Sequence record: OR836606.1
Length of the DNA stretch: 64,000 nucleotides
Reading direction: 5' to 3' (one strand)
DNA from: Staphylococcus phage LY01
Below, piece after piece: positions 2,844 to 61,300 of the stretch (positions are counted from its first letter, which is position 1; every line of letters starts with the position of its first letter). A program made the translations under genes and the position numbers. The notes under the pieces are model-generated. The model was not told the origin of the DNA. It made no database searches and was given only the letters and a program-made list of their open reading frames with translations.

Positions 2844-3626
2844 TTATATATTATAAATTAAAGTCTTCAGTTTTGCAACAAATTTATCCTGATAAATTGA
2901 AAATTTTAACATAATCAATTCACTATATACATCTGTTTCTGGGGCATAGATATCTATTTTAACTAAAGGACAAATTATTTTATCTTTAGACTTTTTATAT
3001 TTTAACCCTAATAAATACTTTTTAGAAGTTCTAAAATCAATAAGGTAGTCTTTTTCATTATAAATATAATAAGGGTCCTTAACAATAACTTTGTCTTTGG
3101 TAAATATAAATTTAAAGAACTCGGAAGGTTTCCTTTCTTTAATATCTAATAAACTATCATTATCTAATTTAAAATTTAGACTTGGTTTAAAAGAACTAAA
3201 ATAATTAATAGCTTCTAATGAATAATTTAATTCTTCATCTAATCTATCTTCATCAAATTCATCATTATTAATAATAGTTTCTAAATCAGATTCTCTAGTT
3301 ATTTTAATACCACTATTATCAATTTCATTAAAAAATTCAACTTTAATAATTTTATCCCCTTTATTCTTTCTTACTTCAATAAAATCTTCTACATTAAAAA
3401 TGCAATTTTCAACAGGTAAAAGATAATCATAAATTGGATTATCTTCTATAATTTCTACTTCGACTGCATTGGGATTGTCATCTGATTTAGAATAATTTTT
3501 TATAATGTTTTTATTTAAACTAATATACTTACTTCCATCAACAATATTATTGAATAACTTAGATATCTCTTCAAAAGTCATTACTAATTTATTTACTATT
3601 TTTGATTCTTCAATAATAATGGACAT
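2844..3626 (-). CDS. hypothetical acidic protein (260 aa), translationally coupled to the upstream polB-N gene
   Basis: ATG overlaps stop of upstream gene (TAATG at 3626); no recognisable motifs; contains no polB motifs B/C. Confidence 0.5.
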   Translation of the reverse strand: MSIIIEESKIVNKLVMTFEEISKLFNNIVDGSKYISLNKNIIKNYSKSDDNPNAVEVEIIEDNPIYDYLLPVENCIFNVEDFIEVRKNKGDKIIKVEFFNEIDNSGIKITRESDLETIINNDEFDEDRLDEELNYSLEAINYFSSFKPSLNFKLDNDSLLDIKERKPSEFFKFIFTKDKVIVKDPYYIYNEKDYLIDFRTSKKYLLGLKYKKSKDKIICPLVKIDIYAPETDVYSELIMLKFSIYQDKFVAKLKTLIYNI

Positions 3627-5642
3627 TAACCAATTTCCCCCTCTAATTCTTTAATGATATCATCAGAAGCTTCAATAAGAGAAGGTAAACCATGAAACTC
3701 TTGAGCAAAAGCAACACTGTCTTGACTATTAAATTTACTTACGAATTCAGTATTAAAATCATAATTATCTTTATCTTGCTCATATTTAGGTACCGTTATT
3801 CTATCTTTATCAAGAATATTCATCTTACCTACATGTCCTTCAGGTGTTATATTAAATGCTCTAATAATAGATGGATATAGAGAACTTAAGTCAAAGTCAC
3901 AAACATTACTAAATAATCTATTAGATCTAATATCTTTACCTTTAACCAATACGTCTCCATTACGTTCGATTAACATCATATCAGCTACAAATCCGCCACG
4001 AATTTTATCAGCATTAGGATCCGATAATAATTTTGAATGATTATTGCTTAATACATATCCTTGATTTTCAAAGAATACTGAACTACGATTTCTTAAACAA
4101 ATAGTTTTCTTAAGTGCTTTACTAGGTCTTGTTCTAGTCATGTCTACAATAGAGAATAATAGATCAAACATATTAGTGTTATGTTCAATCAATGCAGCTA
4201 ATACAGTATCCTTAATATTATAAAGAATAAATGTATAGTAATCTCTAAAATGTAAATCAGAGATAGAACCTTCATATACATCTTTAGTAACTCCTGCTTC
4301 TTTTTCTCCAATATCATTTAACTTAACTGATTCCAAAGCACCATTGGGCTTATTAATATTTGCATATAACGCTAATTGGTCAATCCAATTAGTATAAGAA
4401 TTAGTCTCAAATGTAGAAGATCTATTAGCCATATCAGTAGCATTTTTATCTAATTTATAATATGCTTTTTTATCTTCAAATTCTTTAGAACAGAAATAAT
4501 CTGCAGGATTTTCTCCATTAGCTCTAATACGTTCAAATATTGCAGGAAAGTCATAATCTAGCTTTTATATTTATTAAATATAAAATAGACTATATCATAC
4601 TCATTAATATGAGTGAATATATTTAGTCGTTGAACAACTCTTATTAAGTTGATGCTGATCATTCTAAAAAGAACGTTCCAGCAATTAATATTCTTTTAAT
4701 GGAACCTATTATCAATTCCATGCAGTACATATGTCAGGCTTACTAATTTCATTAATATAATATAAGAAAGATTTAATTACTTGCATTTCTGTATCTAATT
4801 CATATATCTCAAATTCTAAACCTAAATTTTTACCAATTTCACTATTTTCATTATTATAAATTTCATTTAAGTTTTTAATTAATTTATCTTGATCTTCCAT
4901 AGTTTCTTTATAAGTGTCAGTGTCATATTTAAGAGCAAATGTTAATACTTTTTTCTTACTCCAATCCACTACAGTTATAATATTTATCTCTGCCTCAGCT
5001 TTAAGCGGGTCCGGGACAATTTGTATTAAAAGTAATACAAATTAGACTATATCTTCTTAGTAATATATTTAGTCGTTGAACATTAAATTTTTAATGATGC
5101 TGATTATCTTAATAAAGAATTTCCAGCAATTAATATTATTTTATCTGAGCTACCTTTAACCCAGTTACTTGAGATCCATCAACCTCAATATCGAATAGAC
5201 ATATATCTATACCAACTTTACTGTCTAAATTCTTTTTAATATACTCATTGATATTATAATCTTCTATATTTATATCAGAACCATGAGCATTATTTAATAA
5301 ATGGAAATCTTTTAGTTTTCTATATTCTTGCCAATTACCTGACTTCATAATTCTATCGTATTCTGCTTTATCTTGAGAATTACCAGCTTCTTTAACTACT
5401 GATTTGATAATATCTTTATGCTTACAAATAACAGTTCTTACTTTATCTTTTTCAATAGAACCTACAATTTTATTAGGAGGTAACCAATGTTCATCTTTAG
5501 TTACATAATAATGCATCATAGGATCTGTTATTTCCATATGTTTTTTAGTACCATCCTCTTCTTTAACTACCATTACTACTTTTTCTTTACCAGAAGCAGT
5601 TTCTTTTTTATTTAAATATGTTGATTTAATGAATCTTCCCAT
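3626..5642 (-). CDS. family B DNA polymerase, N-terminal half (3'-5' exonuclease plus palm motif A); three exons approx 5159..5642, 4715..5016, 3626..4561 interrupted by two miniature group I introns
   Basis: Exo I LFDIEV; then F-PDPLKAEAEINIITVVD matching T4 gp43 FPDPMKAEYDIDAITHYD; Exo II region AWN|LDYDFPAIFERI collinear with T4 GWNVESFDIPYVYNRI; motif A DFDLSSLYPSII. Frames are interrupted exactly at the two intron elements. Confidence 0.8.
4562..4714 (-). ncRNA. miniature group I intron (~153 nt) in polB-N, between Exo II codons ...AWN and LDYDF...
   Basis: mRNA sense: 5' exon AUGGAAU pairs with IGS GGUUCCAU (terminal U-G), P UAUUAAUUGCUGG, Q AAUCAGCAUC, P6 hairpin, R UGUUCAACGACUAAAUAU, P8 hairpin, S GAUAUAGUCU, then A-rich tail ending AUAUAAAAG| (omega-G). 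Stop codons at both intron ends; flanking exons in same phase. Confidence 0.75.
5017..5158 (-). ncRNA. miniature group I intron (~142 nt) in polB-N, between Exo I (FDIEV...TG) and F-PDP
   Basis: P1: exon CUGGGU pairs IGS GCUCAG with terminal U-G; same P/Q/R/S core as the other copies; phase-1 junction regenerates UUC (Phe) before PDP as in T4 (KF-PDP); proposed 3' end ...CAAAUUG|. Confidence 0.65.
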
Positions 5643-16015: not shown

Positions 16016-16165
16016 ATCTTTTCCACTCCCTTAATTAGATTAATATAGAGATAATGAATTAATATAATTCATTATCTCATTTTTATAATATATATTTACA
16101 TACATTTTTCATCTAAATAAAAGAGATAACGGACAATTATAGTCCGTTATCTCATCTTTTTAAAT

Positions 16166-18712
16166 TTATTCTTTAGTTAAAGAGTATAAAGCTTGTACCA
16201 TATTATTTATGATAATTAGACTATATCTTCTTAGTAATATATTTAGTCGTTGAACAACTTATATTAAGTTGATGCTGATTAATCTAATAAGATACTTCCA
16301 GCAATTAATATTATTTATTGAGAGCATACAAGCATGTTACTCTCATTACCCAAATTACGTACTGAATTACCAGTGTAGTTTAGGTAGTTAGTTTTCTTAT
16401 TAAGAAGTTTATTAGCTTCTTTATTAGCCTCTACAGTCCAGAGAGATCTGATAGAAATCATATCCATTTACGTTATCTATATTAAGATAATATAGATCAG
16501 ACTATATCTTTACTTTAATAAGCATATTATATTTAGTCGTTGAACACTATTTGTAGTGATGCTGATTAAGATAATAATCTTTCCCAGCAATTAATAATAT
16601 TTAAATACGGCAATATAAATTACCGTCAAACGTTTATGTTATCTATAATAAATGATATCATAGACCAGACTATATCATCATCTCAATTGAGATATATTAT
16701 ATTTAGTCGTTGAACAACTTATATGAAGCTGATGCTGATTGCTCTAATAAGAGTTTTCAGCAATTAATAATATTTTCATTCTTAAATCACTTTAAGAAGC
16801 GACTTTTTCAAATCGGCACCTAACGCTATTTAATTTATAATTAAATTTGGACTATATCATAAACCTAAATATTAGGTTCCCTCACACTTCGGGAATTCAT
16901 TTCCCTACTCTACTCACTTCGTTATAGTATTTCAACTATACTTATTCTCTATATAAGAGTTACATTTATTGTTTTCGATAGTCTCTGAACGTTTATCCAT
17001 CATGTGGATACTTCGCTGCTAGACTTTCCCATTATTAAATACCCTTAGCATTTTCAGCATAGGTCATCAAAGAGATTTTTTCTGTCTTTCGACTGCATGT
17101 CACGCTATCCATTACTGGCATACGTTGTAGCTCTCTAAGCATTAGGGTTTACAAGCAATTCATAAGGTATTTTTTATCCTATATTACTATAAGACTGGAG
17201 CGTAAGTTACTCCGGCATAACTGTTGTGTATAATAGCGGTATCTATAAATACATCTTCATCAACAGGATATTCATGAACAACTTTAGGATAATCTTTAAG
17301 TACAATATCGTCTAAAGTAATTTCAGGAATTGTATCAACTGTAGTCAATATTTTAATTTTGGCAGGTGCAACATTCAAGAAATTTTCGCAAACTATATTA
17401 AATTAATACAGATCAGACTATATCATTACCTACTTTTAGGTATATTATATTTAGTCGTTGAACAAGTTTAATTGACTTGATGCTAATTAACCTATTAAAG
17501 TCTTTTAGCAATTAATAATATTTTCATTCTTAAATCACTTTAAGAAGCGACCAGTGTATTAATCGGATATCTTGAATAAACCACATGCTTATCTTCACAT
17601 ATTTCTGTAGCAGCTATATAAAGTAAATCAATTACAGTAAAAGTTCTACCTAAAGTATTTTCAAATAATTTAACTTTATGACGTTTACCTTGTCTATCAT
17701 TTACATATATAGGACTAAATCTTTCATTAGGATCCTTAATAAAGAATTCTAACATATTCTTAATAGCTTTATCATCAAACTGTTCATATACTTCTTCTAA
17801 TGATAATTCATTTTCATCAGTTCCAGTAGCGGTTTGGAAGGCATCTTTGTGGATTTCAATAAAATCGATAATGTATTTGCTAAAGAAAGGTAAGAATAAA
17901 GTAACTAATTGAGTTAATGGTACCCCTAACTGACCAAATTCAATTTGCATTTCATCCCATTTATTTGAATTAATCTTAGGTGAAGAAATAACTGAGCGAG
18001 TACTGTTATCTACCGTCTTACCTAAAATATTTCTTTGCATCATACCAGTTTTACCTGATAGTTCTCCTGAAGTTAATTTAACGTATATTTCAAATAATTT
18101 ATTTTGAATATTATATTTAGTCGTATTAGCTACAAAGTCAAATGAATTAAAACTAATTGAATCTACAGATCTTAAGATGCTTGCATACATATCATTTATT
18201 TCTTCAGTATCTTGAATTTCCCCTGAAGTTTCATTAGGATTAAAGTCACGATAGAAAGCAGGTATTACGAGCCATTTATCTGTGAATATTCTATCTTTAG
18301 GAGTATTTTTAAGCATATCAATTTTTTCATTTCGGATACGAGAATCATTTTTTCTAAATTTAAGATTTTCATAATTATCGTATAAGAAATTTAATCCAGT
18401 TTCACCATTTTCATCTGGAACTAATTGTCCTTTCTCAATTTTAAAGTAATCAGAACCTTGAATACATAGATCTATATTCTTATCTAATTCTCTCATAGCT
18501 TTATAAGCTACAGGATTCAAGTATTTGCCACCTAAATTAATCCAACCTATATTATTCTTTCTTTCATCAGTACCTATTAAACCAAATATTTCATATGAAA
18601 ATAAACCATCTTCTTTAGGTAAAGTTCCTGAATCAAAGAAAATAGGATTAGTAACTTCTTTAGCTCCATAAGCTGTAATAACTTGATCAACATTAACCAT
18701 ATCTATTTTCAT
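16166..18712 (-). CDS. multisubunit RNA polymerase beta-prime-like subunit, N-terminal fragment; six exons approx 17561..18712, 17192..17388, 16812..16825, 16622..16630, 16349..16464, 16166..16198 separated by five group I introns
   Basis: RNILGKTVDNSTRSVISSPK matches RpoC NLLGKRVDYSGRSVIVVGP; SRYPI ~ NRAPTLH; spliced model reads ...SLGAD|FDG|DMISIRSLWTVEANKEANKLLNKKTNYL, collinear with E. coli [34 protein letters not shown]; gene ends ...NLGNESVQALYSLTKE* near the YYMTRD-equivalent point. Confidence 0.7.
16199..16348 (-). ncRNA. miniature group I intron (~150 nt) in RNAP beta-prime-like gene
   Basis: P1: exon GAGAGU pairs IGS GCUCUC with terminal U-G; P/Q/R/S core; 3' end ...AUAAUAUG| leaves in-frame terminal exon VQALYSLTKE*. 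Confidence 0.65.
16465..16621 (-). ncRNA. miniature group I intron (~157 nt) between FDG micro-exon and DMISIRS exon
   Basis: P1: exon GACGGU pairs IGS GCCGU with terminal U-G; core P/Q/R/S; 3' end ...CGUAAAUG| is the only junction that restores the third Asp of DFDGD in frame. Confidence 0.7.
16631..16811 (-). ncRNA. miniature group I intron (~181 nt) between ...LGAD and FDG
   Basis: Exon CCGAU| pairs IGS GUCG (U-G). 33 nt 5' segment GUCGCUUCUUAAAGUGAUUUAAGAAUGAAAAUAU is identical to the intron at ~17390-17560. 3' end ...AUAAACG| is the only phase-0 G downstream of an in-frame UAA. Confidence 0.65.
16826..17191 (-). ncRNA. group I intron, ORF-less (~366 nt), larger relative of the miniature family and of the IStron intron core
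   Basis: P AUGAAUUGCUUGUAAAC, Q AUCUAGCAGCG, R UUCAGAGACUAUCGAAAAC, S AUGAUAUAGUCC; compared with 24270-24600 the 5' P1-P2-P3 segment, R/P7 and the S/3' segment are largely conserved, P5 and the central domain diverge; putative P1 GUCU|-GGAU; proposed 3' end UUAAAUAG|. Confidence 0.65.
17389..17560 (-). ncRNA. miniature group I intron (~170 nt, boundaries +/- 10 nt) between SRYPI... and ...ENFLNVAPAK
   Basis: Same core; shares the 33-nt 5' segment and the CCGAU| - GUCG P1 arrangement with the intron at 16631-16811. Two phase-consistent junction pairs are possible, so the ends are approximate. Confidence 0.55.
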
Positions 18713-21050: not shown

Positions 21051-24000
21051 TTAGAATTTAATCATATTAGATACAAATGAACTATTTGAAGATTCCAATA
21101 CTCTAACACCAATAGATTCAATAATATCTTTACCTGGTTTAATATGATCTTCAATCATACTATCATAGTCAATAAAAGGTCTAAACTCTTCAGGAATTGT
21201 ATTACCTTCAACTGCAATTACATTTAAACCGTTTTTAACTAAACTTTCATTCTTAAATACTTCTCTAAATCTATCTAAAGTATCTTCATCAGTTATCTTA
21301 TTTTTAATATCTCCAAATGTACTAATATTCAATTTAACTGCTAATATCTTAGCAGGTAATGCTATTTCTTTTTCTGGGAACATTATATTCCATGCTAAAG
21401 CAGCTCTATATGCCATTTGAGAATAAGGGTCTTTATATACCTCAGCATTATTAGCTTTAAACGGTTTTAAGAATTCGATTTCTCCATTATCTAATGATTT
21501 CTTAATCATTTCTTCTATATCTTTAAATTTACGTATTATCTTAATACGATCTACACCGGTTTTATTTTCTAAAATATCTTTTTGTAATATTTCAGTAAAT
21601 AGTTCTCTAATACGTTTATTAGTATTAACTTTTCTAATAGCCATACCTTTAACATCTAAATCTGGAGGTTGAATTAAATTACCCTCTTGTTGAATTACTG
21701 ATGATGCATAAGTTTTCTTTTTATCAGTTGTTAATTGTTTATCAAGTAAAACATTTTTATTAGCTTTATTAAATTAATAAAGATTAGACTATATCTTATA
21801 CTTATATTAAGTACATTTATATTTAGTCGTTGAACTTAATTTCTTAAGCTGCTGATTTAATTAATGAACTATTCCAGCAATTAATAAATTTATCTTTCTG
21901 TATATCGCTATACAACGGAGCATTAACTTGATAATACTCATTTTTCATTGATATTAAACCTAAATGTTCTTCCTCTAATCCTACATCTTTACAGAATCTA
22001 TAGTAAGACAATTCTAATAATTTAGTTATTTGATAGTTAATAATAGATATATTACTTACACGTTGTTCTAATTTATCCTCTAAACCATTCTCTGCAATTG
22101 GAAAATCTTCAGGTTTTAAAGATTTAAATTTTTCGTATAACGGATCTAAGTGAACAAAGTTCATTTATGTTAGCTGTATCAAATATAATACAGATCAGAC
22201 TATATCTTCTTTAGAAATATATTTAGTCGTTGAACTTAATTTCTTAAGCTGCTGATTTGATTAATAAATCATTCCAGCAATTAATATTTTTTATTGACAG
22301 CAATTTTTTATCACAACTGTCAGTATCTATAGTTAATACGCTTCTACGTTTCTTGTAATTCATTCTATACATTCTATTATAATCTTGATAATTATATATA
22401 ACCCAATCTTTTAATATTTCAAATAATTCATCTAATAATGGAATCATATCTTCAGGAGGATCATTTGGATCTAAGAAATCTTCTCTGCCAGTCATTTTAC
22501 TAATTTTATTATCAAATATATCGGTATGATCAATTAACCCAAATAAATTATTTTTGAAATATACTTTATTTTTATCTTCTTGACTTAATTTACTAAATAC
22601 TTCTTCTAACTTAAGAAAATCTTCTTCACTATAATCTTCTTCAACATTAGAAACTAAACCTTCTAAAATTTCTTTATCAGTTGGAATTGATTTTATCTTA
22701 ATATCATGATCTTCATATTTTTCACTAATTATTCTTAATATATAATGATATATTTCATCAATCTTCATGAAAAAGATTTTACCGCCAATAAATCTTTCTA
22801 AAGCTATCGCTGAAGTAGTTACAATATCAACTGCTATATAAATTCGTGAATTTAATTTAATTAATTCGAATTTATTCGACTTCGTCATTACTTTTACTTA
22901 CTTTGCACTTTAAGTTTTTCGTTATAAACTACTTCAACATAAAGTGTCAACCAAAGCAGAGGTTAAAGCTCTTAAGTCATCACATTTGGACATTCAAGAG
23001 AATTTAAATCTAGTTAGCCTGCCCAACAAAACGCTTACCGTACATTTTGAGGTTGACAGCAGCGTTATAATCTCTATCCATTTTATTTCCACAATCACAC
23101 TTATACCATCTATCTGATAACTTCATCTTATTTTCTTTAGTTAAGACTTGACCACAATTAGAACATAATTGAGTTGATGGGAACCATCTATCTGCTACAA
23201 TAATAGTATTACCATTGCTTTCAGCTTTTTGTTTTAATAAAGTTCTGAATTGTCTCCAATTCATTGCAGAAATAGATTTAGACAAATTTCTATTTTTAAT
23301 CATATTTGAAACTTTAAGATCTTCAATTGTAATATACTGATAATTTTTAATTAAGTTAGTAGTTATTTTATGAAGATAATCTTTTTTAATGTTATTAATT
23401 CTCATCCATATTTTTTGTATTTTGGTTTTCAATACATTGTATTTGTTAGAACCATAAACTTTACGAGATAATCTTTTTTGATAGTACTTAATCTTATTGT
23501 ATAGTGGAATCAATTTATCATTTAATGAATGATATTTCTTAAATTTACCGAAATCATCATTAATGATAGCTAAATCTTTTACACCTAAATCAATACCAAC
23601 ATGGCTATTGTTATGAATTAAGCTCTTATTATTATCAACTTTCATTACTATTGAAGCGAAATATTTTCCAGCATATTTAGATATAGTAACTTCTTGAATG
23701 GAATTATAATTAAACGGGATAGATTCTTTCATTTTAATTAATGAATTAATTCCTTGAAGTTTTAATTTATTATTTTTATCGCCTTTAATTTGTAATGAAT
23801 AATTATTCTTCTTATAGAACCTTGTACTTAATTTAGAATGTTTTTTAGATTTAAATCTCGGATACTTACCGTAACCTTTCCACATCATATTAAAAGCTTT
23901 ACCTAAATCTTCAGTTGCTGTGTCCATAACTTGAGATATTTGATCTTTTTCCCAATCTTCTTTACATTTTTTAAGTTCATCACGAACTTTCCTATGTGTT

Positions 24001-25234
24001 GGTTTTGGAAGAGATGTATCAAGTTGATGAGCATTCCACATTTGTTTCCATTTATTAAGCCCTTTATTATAAATATATCTAGAATATCCAAATGCTTGAT
24101 TAAATACTTCTTTTTGTTCTTTATTTGGTTTCAATTCGATTTTAATAGATTTGTACATGTGATTTCACCTCCTTCAAATATATAATATATACTTAAAGTT
24201 AGTGATGAATTTTAATTAAATTAAACTCACGAATTCCTGATTTAGTGTTTCCACATCAGTTAAATAGCAAGACTATATCATATTCTATCAGAATGATAGA
24301 ACCCTCGCACTTCAGGAATATTATTTCCCTACTCTACTCACTTCACATAGTATTTCAACTATGCTTATTCAGGCGTTAATCCTGTGCTTTCGATAGTCGT
24401 TGAACGTTCATCCATCATGTGGATGCTTCGCTGCTAGATTTTCCATTAGTCCACCCTTAGCACTTAATTTACATTAAGCTTTTATTTCAGCCTAGGTAAT
24501 CTTAGAGTATTTTTTCTGATTTTCATCTGCTTTCACGCTATCCATTACTGGTATACGTTGTAGCTCTCTAAGCTTTAGGAGTTTACAAGCAATTCACGAG
24601 GTTTGCTCACTTCTTTCATGAATTAAACTAACTTTAATTCACTATGAAGTAAGGGAGTTTTGATTAACTATTTTAAAATAATTTAAGTGAGCAATTCGTG
24701 TTAAATCACTTAAATTATATTAAACTAAAATAGTTTCTTTTCTCCACTATAAGTAGTTGCTGGACCTGAATTAGCATCATAGAATGTACTATTTTTCTGT
24801 ATCATAGCACCGTAATAACTGTTAGCTAAGATCTTAATTGTTTTTTGTTCATTCATATATTTATCATGTAAAACATCATCTTTACCTTTATAAATAAACA
24901 TATTGTGCTTAGCTACTTTACGAGAATCTATAAAGTCTTTTAACATTTCCGCATTTAAATTTTTTCTTTGTGATTGAGGCTGATAAATAGAACCAGAACC
25001 AGTTACAATTAAATTATTATTAATAATTTGTCTTAAGGTTGTATCTACATTCATTTTTTGTCCTGATATTTCTATTAAAGCTGGATCTAAATGTTTTTTA
25101 ATATATTCTCTACAGGCATTAATTAGTTTCTCATCATCAATATCAGGTTTTCTTATTTTAATTAATTTAATTAAATTTTCTAAATAACCCGTTATAGCCC
25201 TTTTACGTTCATATTTATTATCTTGATTAGACAT
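21051..25234 (-). CDS. family B DNA polymerase, C-terminal half (motif B, motif C, KKxY, thumb); exons approx 24745..25234, 22316..22885, 21915..22161, 21051..21763, interrupted by an IStron-like intron and two miniature group I introns
   Basis: Motif B KTIKILANSYYGAMIQKNSTFYDANSGPATT (T4: [29 protein letters not shown]); TTSAIALERFIGGK (T4: TTFGQMALQWIERK); motif C VLTIDTDS at the exon/intron junction; KKKTYA (KKRYA); C-terminus FIDYDSMIEDHIKPGKDII...MIKF (T4: WMDYTVLLEKTFIKPLEGF...FDF). Confidence 0.75.
21764..21914 (-). ncRNA. miniature group I intron (~151 nt) in polB-C, upstream of the KKxY motif
   Basis: Core P/Q/R/S present with the variant Q ...AAUCAGCAGCUU; 3' end ...UUUAAUAAAG|CU regenerates UCU (Ser) with a phase-1 5' junction after ...NAP; the upstream ORF 21844..22164 reads through the intron P element as INCWN...LIKSAA*. 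Confidence 0.55.
22162..22315 (-). ncRNA. miniature group I intron (~154 nt) inserted immediately after polB motif C (IDTDS|)
   Basis: P1: exon GACAGU pairs IGS GCUGUC with terminal U-G, placing the 5' splice site directly after the AGU codon of DTDS; core P/Q/R/S; 3' end ...ACAUAAAUG| (G of the apparent ATG of ORF 21844..22164); downstream exon NFVHLD parallels T4 IYVSAD. Confidence 0.7.
22889..23120 (-). ncRNA. putative TnpB guide RNA scaffold (omega RNA / right-end RNA) overlapping tnpB 3' end and extending to the 3' splice site
   Basis: Locally GC-richer structured segment (GGCAGGCUAACUAGAUUUAAAUUCUC...GGUUGACACUUUAUGUUGAAG) between tnpB stop and polB exon; inferred by analogy with IS605 elements. 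Confidence 0.35.
23010..24158 (-). CDS. tnpB: TnpB (IS605 OrfB-family RNA-guided RuvC nuclease), 382 aa, embedded in the IStron-like intron
   Basis: RuvC-I HVGIDLGVKDLA, RuvC-II YITIEDLKVSNM, zinc finger CSNCG...CDCG, RuvC-III RDYNAAVNL; no tnpA nearby. Confidence 0.85.
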   Translation of the reverse strand: MYKSIKIELKPNKEQKEVFNQAFGYSRYIYNKGLNKWKQMWNAHQLDTSLPKPTHRKVRDELKKCKEDWEKDQISQVMDTATEDLGKAFNMMWKGYGKYPRFKSKKHSKLSTRFYKKNNYSLQIKGDKNNKLKLQGINSLIKMKESIPFNYNSIQEVTISKYAGKYFASIVMKVDNNKSLIHNNSHVGIDLGVKDLAIINDDFGKFKKYHSLNDKLIPLYNKIKYYQKRLSRKVYGSNKYNVLKTKIQKIWMRINNIKKDYLHKITTNLIKNYQYITIEDLKVSNMIKNRNLSKSISAMNWRQFRTLLKQKAESNGNTIIVADRWFPSTQLCSNCGQVLTKENKMKLSDRWYKCDCGNKMDRDYNAAVNLKMYGKRFVGQAN

Positions 25235-58360: not shown

Positions 58361-61300
58361 TTATTTTTCAACATTAATGTCAATGAAGATACGTTCAATA
58401 ACATTATTGAATTTAACAGAAATTTTAATACGTACAATACGTTGAGATTTATCATATTCATCTGCGCTAACTTCAGCTTGAATAGTTTCACAGCTACGGT
58501 TAGATACATAACGAGTAAGATAAGCATTCAACTCTGTACTCATAATTGAACGAGTTTCATCATCATTTAATTCAAATTGGTAATCAGAAACAAGAGTTTC
58601 TGCATCACGTTTAATTTGGTTTAATGTAAAGATATTATTCAAGTTAGATAATGGACCATCAGATTTAATAGAAGTCATCTGTGCACCAAATTTAGTTTTA
58701 TCAATATCTTTTTCAATGTAGTTGATTTTAGAAGTATAAAGTTTTTCTTTATAAGGTTCATTAGGAGCCCAAGATAAAGCTTTATGGCCTTCAACTAAAC
58801 CACGTCTAGGACCCGCAATTGGGAAATGTAAACCAGAGTTAACAGCTTGATAAGGAATCATTGAAGCTAAACGATAAGTTGGAGTGAAACGAATGTCTCT
58901 ACCAGTGTACTCATCATAATAAGTTAAATCTTGAGAGTAAATAGCTGTATACTCAGAAGAAACAGCAAATTCTTCTTTTCTCCATCTAATTGCATCTTCA
59001 GGACTAACTGGATAACGATCAGTAACTGTGTCGGCTAAGAATACAAAGTCTTTACGAACATTTTTAGCTAATTCAGAGATAGCGAACTTAACTTCATTAG
59101 AATAACGAGCATCAAGTACAACATCAAATGGATAAGCTTTAGTGTTTGTAATTTCTTCGTCTACTAAACCTTTATAAGCTTTAATTAATTCACGATTAAC
59201 TGCATTTTTACGATCCTTATATGAAATATCTTCAGCATATGAGAAGTCGCCATCAGAACCGAATAAGAATTTAACTGGACTAGAAATATCAATAAGGTTT
59301 GTATTGAAGTATTTAGAGTTAGCCTTATTCAAGTTAGCAACTGCTAATTCAATATTTTGATGAGCGTTTAATGTAATATCTCTTTCTGTATAGTTAGAAC
59401 GAGTTTGAATCATTTCGTCAATATTTTTACGGAAGATAGAAATATCATAATAGATTGTATTAACCGCAATACGGACTGCACGAGCAACTTTGTATACAGA
59501 AGCCACTGATACAGCTCTATTAATTAAATCTACTAATTGATTAGCAATTTCATTACAAGTTACGAATACTTCTTCACGGTTAACAGCGTTATCTTCCATT
59601 AATCCTAATGTAATATCGTCAACTAACATTTGTTTGTCAGCCAATGAATTTAACATGGATTCTGGAGAAACTAAGTCACGTTCTGAATCTTCATCGTCAC
59701 CATCAGGAGTAGTGTTAATAAAATTAATTGCTTCTTCAGGGAGTCCTTCACGTACTGCTGGCATTAAGTTATCTATTACATAACGTAATTCTGTTTCAGT
59801 ATCATTTAATACTTTAGCCATTCCTTCTAAGTTAGTTACAGATTTCATACCAATACGTAATTCAGCGATATCATTTGTAATATCTAAGATATTAGATTTA
59901 TGTTGAATACCGAAGATACGGATTTGGTCTTTCTGAGCTAATACATCACGTAATTCTTTAACATCAGCTTGATATTTAGGATTTGAAGAAATACCTGAAT
60001 TAGATTTATAAACTAATTCGTAAGCAGCATTAAGTTTATTACCATTATCTAAGAATTCATTTAATAATAAAGAACCAATTTCTTCTGTTCCAGAAAGAAC
60101 TGCAGAAAGGTTTTCTTCATTTGAATCTTCAAAATAAGTGTTATAATCTTGAACTAAACGTTCAGCTGCTCCAGCAGGTTTACCACCGAAATTAATTTCA
60201 GAAGGTTTGAATTTTCCAGCTAATTCTTCTTCAACTGCTTCTGCATCATTAATATCTGCAGATACATCTTCTTGATTTAATTTTTCAGAAACTAAATTAT
60301 CTTTAATAATTTTAGGTAAGTTACCTGTATCATCATCAAATAAACCATTAGATGGCACAATAATTTTATTCAATAATGATTTAAATTCTGTAAAATTATC
60401 AGAACGTAAAGTTTTGTATTGATCTCTCATATAAGAAAGACGGTCTGAATCTGTAACGAAAGTTTTTTCACGCATACCATTATCTAATGAAATTAATGCG
60501 TTTTCAACTGGATCATTAAAATCAGGTTTATTCAATACGTGTTTACCACTAATAGTTACTGGTAGACCTTTGTTATTATAACGGTGTAAAGCAATATGAA
60601 CATCTTCCGTTTGTTTAGTTTCTTCTGAATAGAAAGTTTCAGGAGTTCCATCAATACTAATTTTAGATTTACCAGAAATAACATCAATACTTGCAGGATG
60701 TACATTAGGGTTAATTTCTTTAGCTAGATTTTGGAAGTTTTCTAGATTAAATTTGATGTTAATGTATTTAGAATAACGATTAACAACTTCTTCAATAAAC
60801 ATTGATTCACCGGTATCTGAAATCGAATCTGGATCAAATGTAACTAAGAATGGACCATCAATTACGTTAACGTTACCAAAATCATCAAATTCAAGAACTT
60901 CTAAGTTGTAAACACGTTCAGTACGACCACTAGTGTCATAAGAAGTATTTAGAGTTAAACGAATACCTAAATCATTATAAGATTCACCACGACCATTAGG
61001 ATAAGCTAAAAGTAAGAAGTTATTGTTATAACCATCTACTGTTTGCTCATTACCACGGTCTAAAGTAATTTCATTAACTAATTCTTCAATATTTCTATTA
61101 TTTTTCTTAACAAATGCAATTGTTGGACGAATTTTGACATCGTCAATTTTAACCAATTCATTTGATTCTGTTAAAACTTTTTTACCATCTTTTTGTACTC
61201 TACTTTGTACGTTTAATATAGCATGTGAATAAGTTGCATTTTGCGGTAGAATACGTAATACATAAGCTTGACCACCAGAACGTAACCAGTTCACGATGTT

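Follow-up and report, generated by a model that had tools for sequence, protein, structure and literature searches.

The 64,000-nt stretch of Staphylococcus phage LY01 analysed here (record OR836606.1; the window) carries a 1,911-nt insert within polB, the gene for the catalytic subunit of the phage DNA polymerase, and in this insert an intron and a mobile element are coextensive. Its composition, with a group I ribozyme at the 5' side, tnpB within an inverted-repeat (IR) stem and intron ends that are also the element boundaries, fits the IStron class. We read it as a TnpA-less IS607-type IStron of the published "group B", similar to CsISt1, with a probability of about 0.8. This reading is carried by the anatomy of the insert, its precise excision in silico, ends that are conserved family-wide, RNA covariation and an intact TnpB, and the element accounts for the "split" polymerase and the "transposase" gene in the annotation of these phage genomes.

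The window belongs to the S6/PALS_2/MarsHill clade of Staphylococcus jumbo phages, with exons ~95% identical by megablast. Its polB holds three inserts, as determined by BLAST against MarsHill and by inspection of PALS_2; the polB coding sequence (CDS) of PALS_2 is uninterrupted, with 1,935 nt (L002, CDS 3067-5001), and the MarsHill annotation gives one intron. The large insert is 1,911 nt of extra sequence relative to both alleles, flanked by ...ACTACTTATAGTGGAG and TTGATATTGTAACT..., and the empty alleles read ...TATAG(T/C)GGTGTTGATATT... at this place. The positions that matter for its boundaries, all in window coordinates, are as follows (^ marks a cut throughout).

25234 to 21051, minus: polB catalytic-subunit gene
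22831..24741, minus: whole IStron, 1,911 nt, AAAAGAAACTA ... TTTATATAGCAG
24742..24745, minus: last four nucleotides of exon 1, GGAG; exon strand of P1 and putative target site or target-adjacent motif (TAM); "AG" repeated at both junctions
22831..22834, minus: 3'-terminal GCAG; the terminal G (omega-G) is 22831, and C at -3 sets GCAG apart from the GGAG target
22811..22830, minus: first 20 nt of exon 2, TTGATATTGTAACTACTTCA; putative guide/target by analogy with CboIStron, same in MarsHill, PALS_2 and S6
22315-22162 (154 nt) and 21935-21752 (184 nt), minus: two polB mini-introns, removed alongside the IStron

Exon 1 ends with ...TATAGTGGAG at 24742 and exon 2 starts with TTGATATT at 22830. 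Because "AG" occurs at both junctions (a 2-nt ambiguity), three cut positions lead to an identical product, and the element was placed at 24741..22831 because only that cut yields a terminal G. The predicted spliced junction reads ...TATAGTGGAG^TTGATATTG..., so that excision after ...GGAG and ...CAG joins TTYSG^VDIV (TTYSG^VDIVTTSAIALERF across the junction). With all three inserts taken out, a 644-aa open reading frame (ORF) results, of which 627/644 residues (97%) are identical to the PALS_2 protein without a gap. Under the canonical splice rule (exon U, intron G), no pair of sites keeps the frame without loss of conserved residues, a failure that is resolved by the 2-nt AG ambiguity together with the published group B rule. 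A cut at the upstream G (TATATAG^) would add one Ala in frame and was rejected, since relatives have SGV here and elements of the family terminate in CAG.

A previous interpretation made without database searches (the sequence-only reading) had proposed an IStron in polB, consisting of a group I core, tnpB and a 3' guide-RNA region, whose removal is needed for a functional polymerase, and this core proposal is supported. Its limits of 22870-24745 are accurate to within 3-4 nt at the 5' side and off by 39-55 nt at the 3' side. Exon 2 had been started at ~22885 with TKSNKF, and its real start is 22830; the 19 residues MTKSNKF...IYIA ahead of it are intronic read-through, and the ATG of this downstream ORF at 22888 has no Shine-Dalgarno sequence, unlike the tnpB and polB starts.

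Ribozyme, inverted-repeat stem, tnpB and 3' RNA

The 5' part of the insert is a group I (IA2-type) ribozyme with P3/P7 pseudoknot topology. The Rfam model RF00028 matches 24248-24657(-) over its whole length (1-253; 21.2 bits, E=0.004 in a 581-nt search), and the alignment runs through P3, P4, P6, GUUCAACGACUA (P7), P8, GAUAUAGUC (P7') and P9. Homologues of the ribozyme were gathered via the TnpB protein and via a conserved 21-mer, for which a pattern scan gave one locus in viral contigs and eight loci in metagenomes; one of the eight (L019) was a chance match within an unrelated gene and was discarded. From the 10 aligned sequences, RNAalifold recovered P2, P3, P4, P5/P5abc, P6, P8 and P9, with compensatory changes in 52/78 pairs. 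After P7 was added as a pseudoknot, the structure comprises 84 pairs, with 96.9% of cells paired (33-44% in slid controls), compensatory changes in 52/84 pairs (4-15 in slid controls) and a covariation score of 0.51 (0.04-0.09). The structure came from the alignment on which it was scored, which favours it, and its margin over the controls is very large. The group I core named by the sequence-only reading is thereby confirmed through the whole-model match and covariation over 10 homologues.

24237..24653, minus: ribozyme core, including P2 (RF00028, RNAalifold, pair counts)
24654..24657, minus: internal guide sequence CUCC, pairing with exon GGAG, with a G-C pair at the splice site
24669..24727, minus: P1 extension hairpin, after the 5' splice site and ahead of the internal guide (element positions 15-73; self-complementary in a BLAST of the element against itself)
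24601-24596/24308-24303, minus: P3, pseudoknotted with P7
24591-88/24435-32, minus: P4
24580-24442, minus: P5-P5abc
24431-24404, minus: P6/P6a
24398-93/24276-71, minus: P7; P7.1/7.2 hairpins are also in the core
24302-24296/24288-82, minus: P8
24259-56/24240-37, minus: P9

In the 5' exon, the final nucleotide is a G paired to a guide C, not a U. The guide motif AACTCCC (RNA AACUCCC) is invariant across the family, and NNGGAG stands directly before the element in 11/11 members with a readable 5' junction, at different sites. Exon GGAG pairs with guide CUCC here, and exon GAGG pairs with guide CCUC in the IStron of phage c-st; P1 therefore covaries between families. The P1 extension hairpin holds the stop codon that terminates the exon-1 read-through, and its length differs among homologues, down to 14 nt only in L012.

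Two side observations concern short motifs. The motif CGTGAATT or its complement AATTCACG occurs four times in the element, at 24693, 24598, 24232 and 22848 (-), i.e., in the P1-extension loop, the P3/P4 junction, the 5' IR arm and the 3' IR arm. This recurrence would also allow pairing between the 3' IR arm and the P3-P4 core strand, and the copies might act as binding repeats for TnpA or as an RNA switch. A second GGAGAAAAGAAG string at 58975-58990 (-) of the window has no ACTCCC guide or ribozyme downstream and is probably a chance match in coding sequence.

Downstream of the core, tnpB and its flanks form the loop of a long IR stem of 23-24 bp with 82% A/U, whose duplex energy is -25 to -29 kcal/mol, compared with -9.5 +/- 2.8 in shuffles. 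Stems at the equivalent place with different sequences are found in the Listeria phage LPJP1 and in L006, L008 and L011, and in the ORF-less members L012 and L022 a short hairpin replaces the IR and ORF. The 3' arm has a local alternative, a hairpin of -6.5 kcal/mol against the -25 kcal/mol of the long-range stem. By analogy, the two pairings would be the mutually exclusive intron and guide folds described for CboIStron.

24212..24235, minus: 5' arm of the IR stem (element positions 507-530); 24 nt, 95.8% complementary to 22841-22864
22841..22864, minus: 3' arm of the IR stem (element positions 1878-1901)
22873-22867/22846-22840, minus: local hairpin AAAUUCG/CGAAUUU, alternative to the long-range pairing of the 3' arm
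24168..24172, minus: Shine-Dalgarno sequence GGAGG of tnpB, 9 nt before the ATG, read from the sequence
23010..24158, minus: tnpB, 382 aa, intact (Pfam, NCBIfam and PDB matches)
22831..23034, minus: omega-RNA-like scaffold, overlapping the last 25 nt of tnpB including the stop codon and ending at the 3' splice site; the 5' limit of 23034 is provisional
22978-22974/22882-22878, minus: long-range scaffold stem GACUU/AAGUC (ACUC/GAGU in L006 and L008)

The product of tnpB carries the Pfam domains HTH_OrfB_IS605, OrfB_IS605 and Cas12f1-like_TNB, scores 254.6 bits against the NCBIfam model guided_TnpB (NF040570; cutoff 100) and matches TnpB structures in the PDB (8iaz, 4e-48; ISDra2 8exa, 2e-41). 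Its sequence places it in the RNA-guided nuclease family. As the sequence-only reading had held, RuvC I/II/III and the zinc finger are intact, with GIDLG (D190), IEDL (E279) and DRD (D361/D363) for the former and CSNCG and CDCG for the latter. As a side observation, homologous elements share TAACATAAA ~35-45 nt ahead of the tnpB start, in the IR loop (L005 ~375, L006 ~2460, L008 ~2460, L011 ~560, L013 ~960), and the window copy has TAACTTTAAG. This motif resembles AACA-N6-TW, which we take to be the late-promoter motif of AR9-type phage RNA polymerase.

The 3' region, from the end of tnpB to the 3' splice site, was aligned over seven homologues whose TnpBs are 42-74% identical. The conserved blocks of the scaffold are GCGTTTTGTTGGGCAGG, ATGACTTAAGAG, GACGAAGTCGA and TTTATATAGCAG, and the seven elements share one order: GCGTTTTGTTGGGCAGG at the ORF end, a covarying hairpin, ATGACTTAAGAG, variable hairpins, GACGAAGTYGA and (T)TTATATAGCAG. 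The first omega-RNA hairpins were judged by eye, as the MAFFT alignment shifts two sequences by one column. Compensatory changes occur in 12/19 predicted scaffold pairs (RNAalifold), and the similarity ends precisely at the 3' splice site. The case for an omega-RNA in this region is good but indirect. The 3' segment had earlier been described as structured and locally GC-richer; structure is supported by conservation and covariation, and the GC content is barely higher (27.9% against 25.9% for the window).

The element family and competing explanations

Homologous elements with identical ends, NNGGAG^ ... RCAG^, occupy at least 11 unrelated sites, and RCAG closes the element in 9/9 family members. 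The target GGAG and the right end RCAG differ at position -3. The copy in LPJP1 lies upstream of groL, has a ribozyme 79% identical to that of the window and is bounded by GTGGAG^AAAAGAAG... and ...TATATAGCAG^. Between its ribozyme and a tnpB that contains a stop, it encodes an IS607-family serine transposase (NF033518, 178 bits against a cutoff of 110; Pfam Resolvase). Other copies lie in hypothetical genes (L006, L008), upstream of an amidase gene (L011), in the nrdD region (L005) and in a gene similar to that of the RNA polymerase beta' subunit (L012), and cutting at GGAG^...CAG^ restores open frames in L006, L008 and L012. The ORF-less L012 element, at 4310-4710 on the minus strand of an IMG/VR contig, reads GGTGGAG^AAAAC...AAACAG^ and is located immediately before the catalytic DYDGD motif. 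An intergenic, 5'-truncated copy at 880-2320 of L013-L018, one locus in six metagenomic assemblies, retains the P9 remnant GTGGAAACACAAAATCAAG, tnpB and the 3' scaffold ending AAGGCAG. No tnpA was found in the element of the window or in the whole 64-kb window; the IS607 assignment is made because the LPJP1 homologue keeps an IS607 serine transposase within equivalent ends. Two independent adjacent insertions of intron and tnpB, which the sequence-only reading had named as the finding that would overturn it, are rejected because the composite recurs with identical ends at unrelated sites, because tnpB lies inside the IR loop and because 3' conservation stops at the splice site.

Comparison with published IStrons supports the group B assignment. 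The exon-final G pairs with a guide C in 11/11 members, and an IR of 15-34 bp with >80% A/U, accompanied by a 3' direct repeat complementary to the 3' IR (AAAUUCG/CGAAUUU), is present here as in that group. The group B target ending in GG (AGGG/TGGG/GAGG) and the 3' end CGG are replaced here by NNGGAG^ ... RCAG^. Ends of the AG...CAG kind have so far been reported for CsISt1 only, and group B IStrons have often lost tnpA and kept tnpB (PMC4227781). CsISt1 of Clostridium sporogenes (Tourasse et al. 2014, PMC4227781) likewise inserts after AG, ends in CAG, has ORF B only, places an IA2 ribozyme at the 5' side and encloses the ORF in the IR stem, a likeness by description alone; unlike the present element, which interrupts a replication gene of a lytic jumbo phage, it resides in a bacterial chromosome.

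CboIStron and CbISt3-CbISt4 (C. botulinum and phage c-st; IS607; Zedaveinyte et al., 10.1101/2023.11.20.567912) share the order ribozyme, (tnpA), tnpB and omega-RNA, the pairing of exon G with guide C, an AU-rich IR, a 3' splice site at the scaffold/guide boundary and a phage-borne location. The CboIStron target TGGG and right end TCGG differ at -3, in parallel to GGAG and GCAG here, and -3 is the most discriminated TAM position in that system (10.1101/2023.11.20.567912). Unlike the present element, the CboIStron and c-st elements have targets and ends of TGGG/GAGG ... CGG and TnpBs only ~36% identical to ours, and c-st is a plasmid-prophage with insertions outside the replicative polymerase; BLAST found no meaningful similarity between the c-st IStron ribozyme and the present family. 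BcISt1 of the Bacillus cereus group, the group B prototype, also has ORF-less derivatives with a short hairpin, as in L012 and L022, and its splicing after G instead of U was shown experimentally (PMC4227781). It differs in its GG ... CGG ends and in being chromosomal or plasmid-borne in bacteria.

An identity with group A or IS605-type elements (CdISt1) was rejected in view of the GGAG target, the long AU-rich IR and the serine recombinase that serves as TnpA in the homologue. Group I introns of the SPO1/SP82 type in phage polymerase genes carry homing endonucleases (HNH, GIY-YIG, LAGLIDADG) and have a canonical U.G 5' splice site. Like the present element, they interrupt a conserved polymerase segment, hold a mobility ORF in a peripheral loop and are patchily distributed among close relatives; they depend on a protein-only endonuclease, in contrast to an RNA-guided TnpB whose target would be set by the element's own transcript. 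The ISDra2 TnpB/omega-RNA complex (PDB 8EXA, 8H1J) matches TnpB at E = 2e-41 with equal positions of the RuvC triad and has its guide RNA at the tnpB 3' end. It comes from an intron-free IS605-family element whose TnpA is of the tyrosine (HUH) type and whose TAM is TTGAT.

The IStron is absent from polB of 9/9 sequenced relatives, i.e., PALS_2, MarsHill and seven more. The 22 nt following the site are identical in the closest relatives (MarsHill, S6, PALS_2), and the A at window position 24743 in GGAG makes a synonymous difference (GGA instead of GGT, Gly) within the presumed TAM and P1 helix. Among the matches listed, two proteins of Staphylococcus phage LY01 come nearest to this TnpB, at 86% identity, and more than 100 distinct TnpBs of ~60% identity among 120 listed come mostly from ~240-kb contigs, with several per contig. 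A search of 185,579 bacterial and archaeal reference genomes gave no exact match to the ribozyme 21-mer, and no TnpB relatives were confirmed in viral contigs or in those reference genomes. The tnpB of Machias phage (38% identical) was set aside as a plain insertion sequence without an intron. A literature search found no paper joining IStrons with jumbo phages, and the main text of the MarsHill paper does not mention transposases.

Several observations weigh against the assignment or its functional consequences. The RF00028 score is far under the gathering threshold of 50, and Rfam returned no match in the 64-kb window at the gathering threshold or in a 5.5-kb scan at E<=10. For the 3' region, an Rfam search gave chance-level hits only, with no match to a curated RNA family, and its single-sequence folding energy is ordinary (z = -0.8). 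The 5' exon lacks the canonical U.G pair, as is known in group B IStrons, where the mechanism is unexplained, and P10 pairing is not evident. All seven IStron-free relatives read at the site (7/7; L001, L002, L028-L032) have GGTG, not GGAG, and are maybe poor TnpB targets. Near the IStron, the exons diverge only slightly more than elsewhere (5-6 differences per 60 nt, with a baseline of ~3), a weak co-conversion signal. The DNA of these phages, as reported for the MarsHill group, has uracil for thymine and many intron-split genes, and such uracil-substituted DNA may affect its use as a TnpB substrate.

Some of these points also bear on the strongest competing explanation, namely that the intron works and that TnpB and its RNA are a relict left after TnpA loss or are kept only as a modulator of splicing. 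The missing tnpA, the GGTG of the relatives, the unclear co-conversion tract, the stop in the LPJP1 tnpB and the truncated copies in L013-L018 all favour it, and TnpB and omega-RNA are reported to repress splicing in the CboIStron. We nevertheless consider it unlikely, because the window tnpB is full-length, retains every catalytic and zinc-binding residue and is preceded by a strong Shine-Dalgarno sequence, the 86%-identical LY01 copies and many of the listed ~60% relatives are intact, and compensatory changes accompany the conservation of the 3' scaffold, a pattern that speaks for selection on an RNA-protein complex.

Much less probable is a nested arrangement, in which an ORF-less group I intron later took up a tnpB-only insertion sequence in its P9.1 loop, with ends inside the intron and a guide that targets the intron. 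ORF-less relatives with matching intron ends and a short hairpin instead of the IR and ORF (L012, L022) would suit such a history, as would the terminal-loop position of tnpB, which resembles a classical intron-encoded ORF, and the intron-free tnpB of Machias. Yet the tnpB-linked 3' RNA is conserved through the 3' IR arm to the last intron nucleotide and then stops, the 5'-truncated L013-18 copy keeps the end ...AAGGCAG, the LPJP1 IS607 transposase lies within GGAG^...CAG^ ends, the GGAG target and CAG end fit the IS607-type dinucleotide-core logic and published group B IStrons, and none of the copies found shows tnpB-module ends within the IR loop. That no splicing takes place and a plain insertion sequence separates two polypeptides, a 169-aa exon 1 product and a 214-aa product from ATG 22888, is scarcely credible: both flanking ORFs are open, the downstream one starts with ATG and this phage group has split polymerases whose N- and C-terminal subunits are encoded by separate genes, but this ATG has no Shine-Dalgarno sequence of the kind that precedes tnpB and polB, the break falls within a conserved T-x-x-G segment just after motif B, 9/9 relatives encode a continuous protein across it, and a complete, covariation-supported ribozyme lies exactly between both frames.

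Other introns in the window

Besides the IStron, the window holds eight mini group-I-like introns of ~130-185 nt, all on the minus strand and built on one plan, AATATTAATTGCTGG-hairpin-AATCAGCAKC-hairpin-GTTCAACGACTAAATATA-hairpin-GATATAGTCT-hairpin.

4530-4750, 4976-5196, 16150-16370, 16440-16660, 16610-16830, 17358-17578, 21752-21935 and 22162-22315, minus: mini-introns

The two in polB have canonical ends (exon U, intron G), which are fixed by the intron-free PALS_2 allele; the 154-nt one has exon GACAGU paired to GCUGUC and a U.G pair at the splice site. To our knowledge, the mini-introns are smaller than any natural group I intron, and they may merit more attention than the IStron. The exons around the mini-intron at 22162-22315 (~22255-22375) show 15 and 8 differences per 60 nt relative to PALS_2 (baseline ~3; 5-6 at the IStron), a divergence peak suggestive of a co-conversion tract or of exons adapted to P1/P10.

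An ORF-less group I intron of ~360 nt lies at 16830-17190 (-) in a phage RNA-polymerase subunit gene, with four mini-introns within 1.5 kb. It has no GGAG^AAAAG 5' end, CUCC guide, IR stem or CAG end. The homology of the IStron core to this intron, as first noted from the sequence, holds, with 78% identity over 16879-17168. The further proposal that the core is the ancestor of the miniature introns does not, as BLAST similarity to these is limited to the generic P/Q/R/S motifs and the mini-introns use canonical U...G sites.

Possible homing of the element

From the anatomy of the element and the systems described above, we infer splicing, guide-RNA formation, the identity of the TAM, cleavage and homing. 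In the proposed mechanism, the polB pre-mRNA would fold as a ribozyme, with exon GGAG pairing with guide CUCC to form P1 and with assembly of the P3-P9 core, and the 23-bp AU-rich IR stem would loop out tnpB and carry ...UAUAGCAG to the core. Guanosine-initiated splicing after G24742 and the terminal G22831 would then yield ...AGU GGA G^UU GAU... and a normal polymerase. Alternatively, TnpB made from its own ribosome-binding site would bind the 3' scaffold of unspliced transcripts; in this guide fold, the 3' IR arm would pair locally, and exon 2 would supply the guide with its first ~16-20 nt. The TnpB complex would cut DNA in which GGAG abuts TTGATATTGTAACTAC..., i.e., the IStron-free polB allele of a co-infecting phage, and repair off the IStron-bearing genome would copy the element in. 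The element's own right end GCAG, with C at -3, would protect the occupied site. This copy could not drive its own transposition, because it has no transposase. Spread of a TnpB-only IStron by RNA-guided intron homing is a published idea, described as awaiting validation. Mixed-infection crosses could test homing directly, because the relatives offer an empty site, a 22-nt guide match and a single-base TAM difference.

The setting of the element is an essential replication gene in a culturable lytic phage group, and the rare AG...CAG (CsISt1-like) variant now forms a sizeable family in phages and metagenome contigs. We tentatively suggest, as a possibility that falls short of being the likelier outcome, a phage-adapted IStron lineage in which TnpB and its guide RNA take the place of a protein homing endonuclease in driving intron homing, and possibly also the exclusion of competitors, among co-infecting jumbo phages with uracil DNA, and which has multiplied within ~240-kb phage genomes. 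If this were true, the synonymous GGT of the IStron-free relatives would confer resistance, as an allele that disrupts the TAM and the P1 pairing alike.

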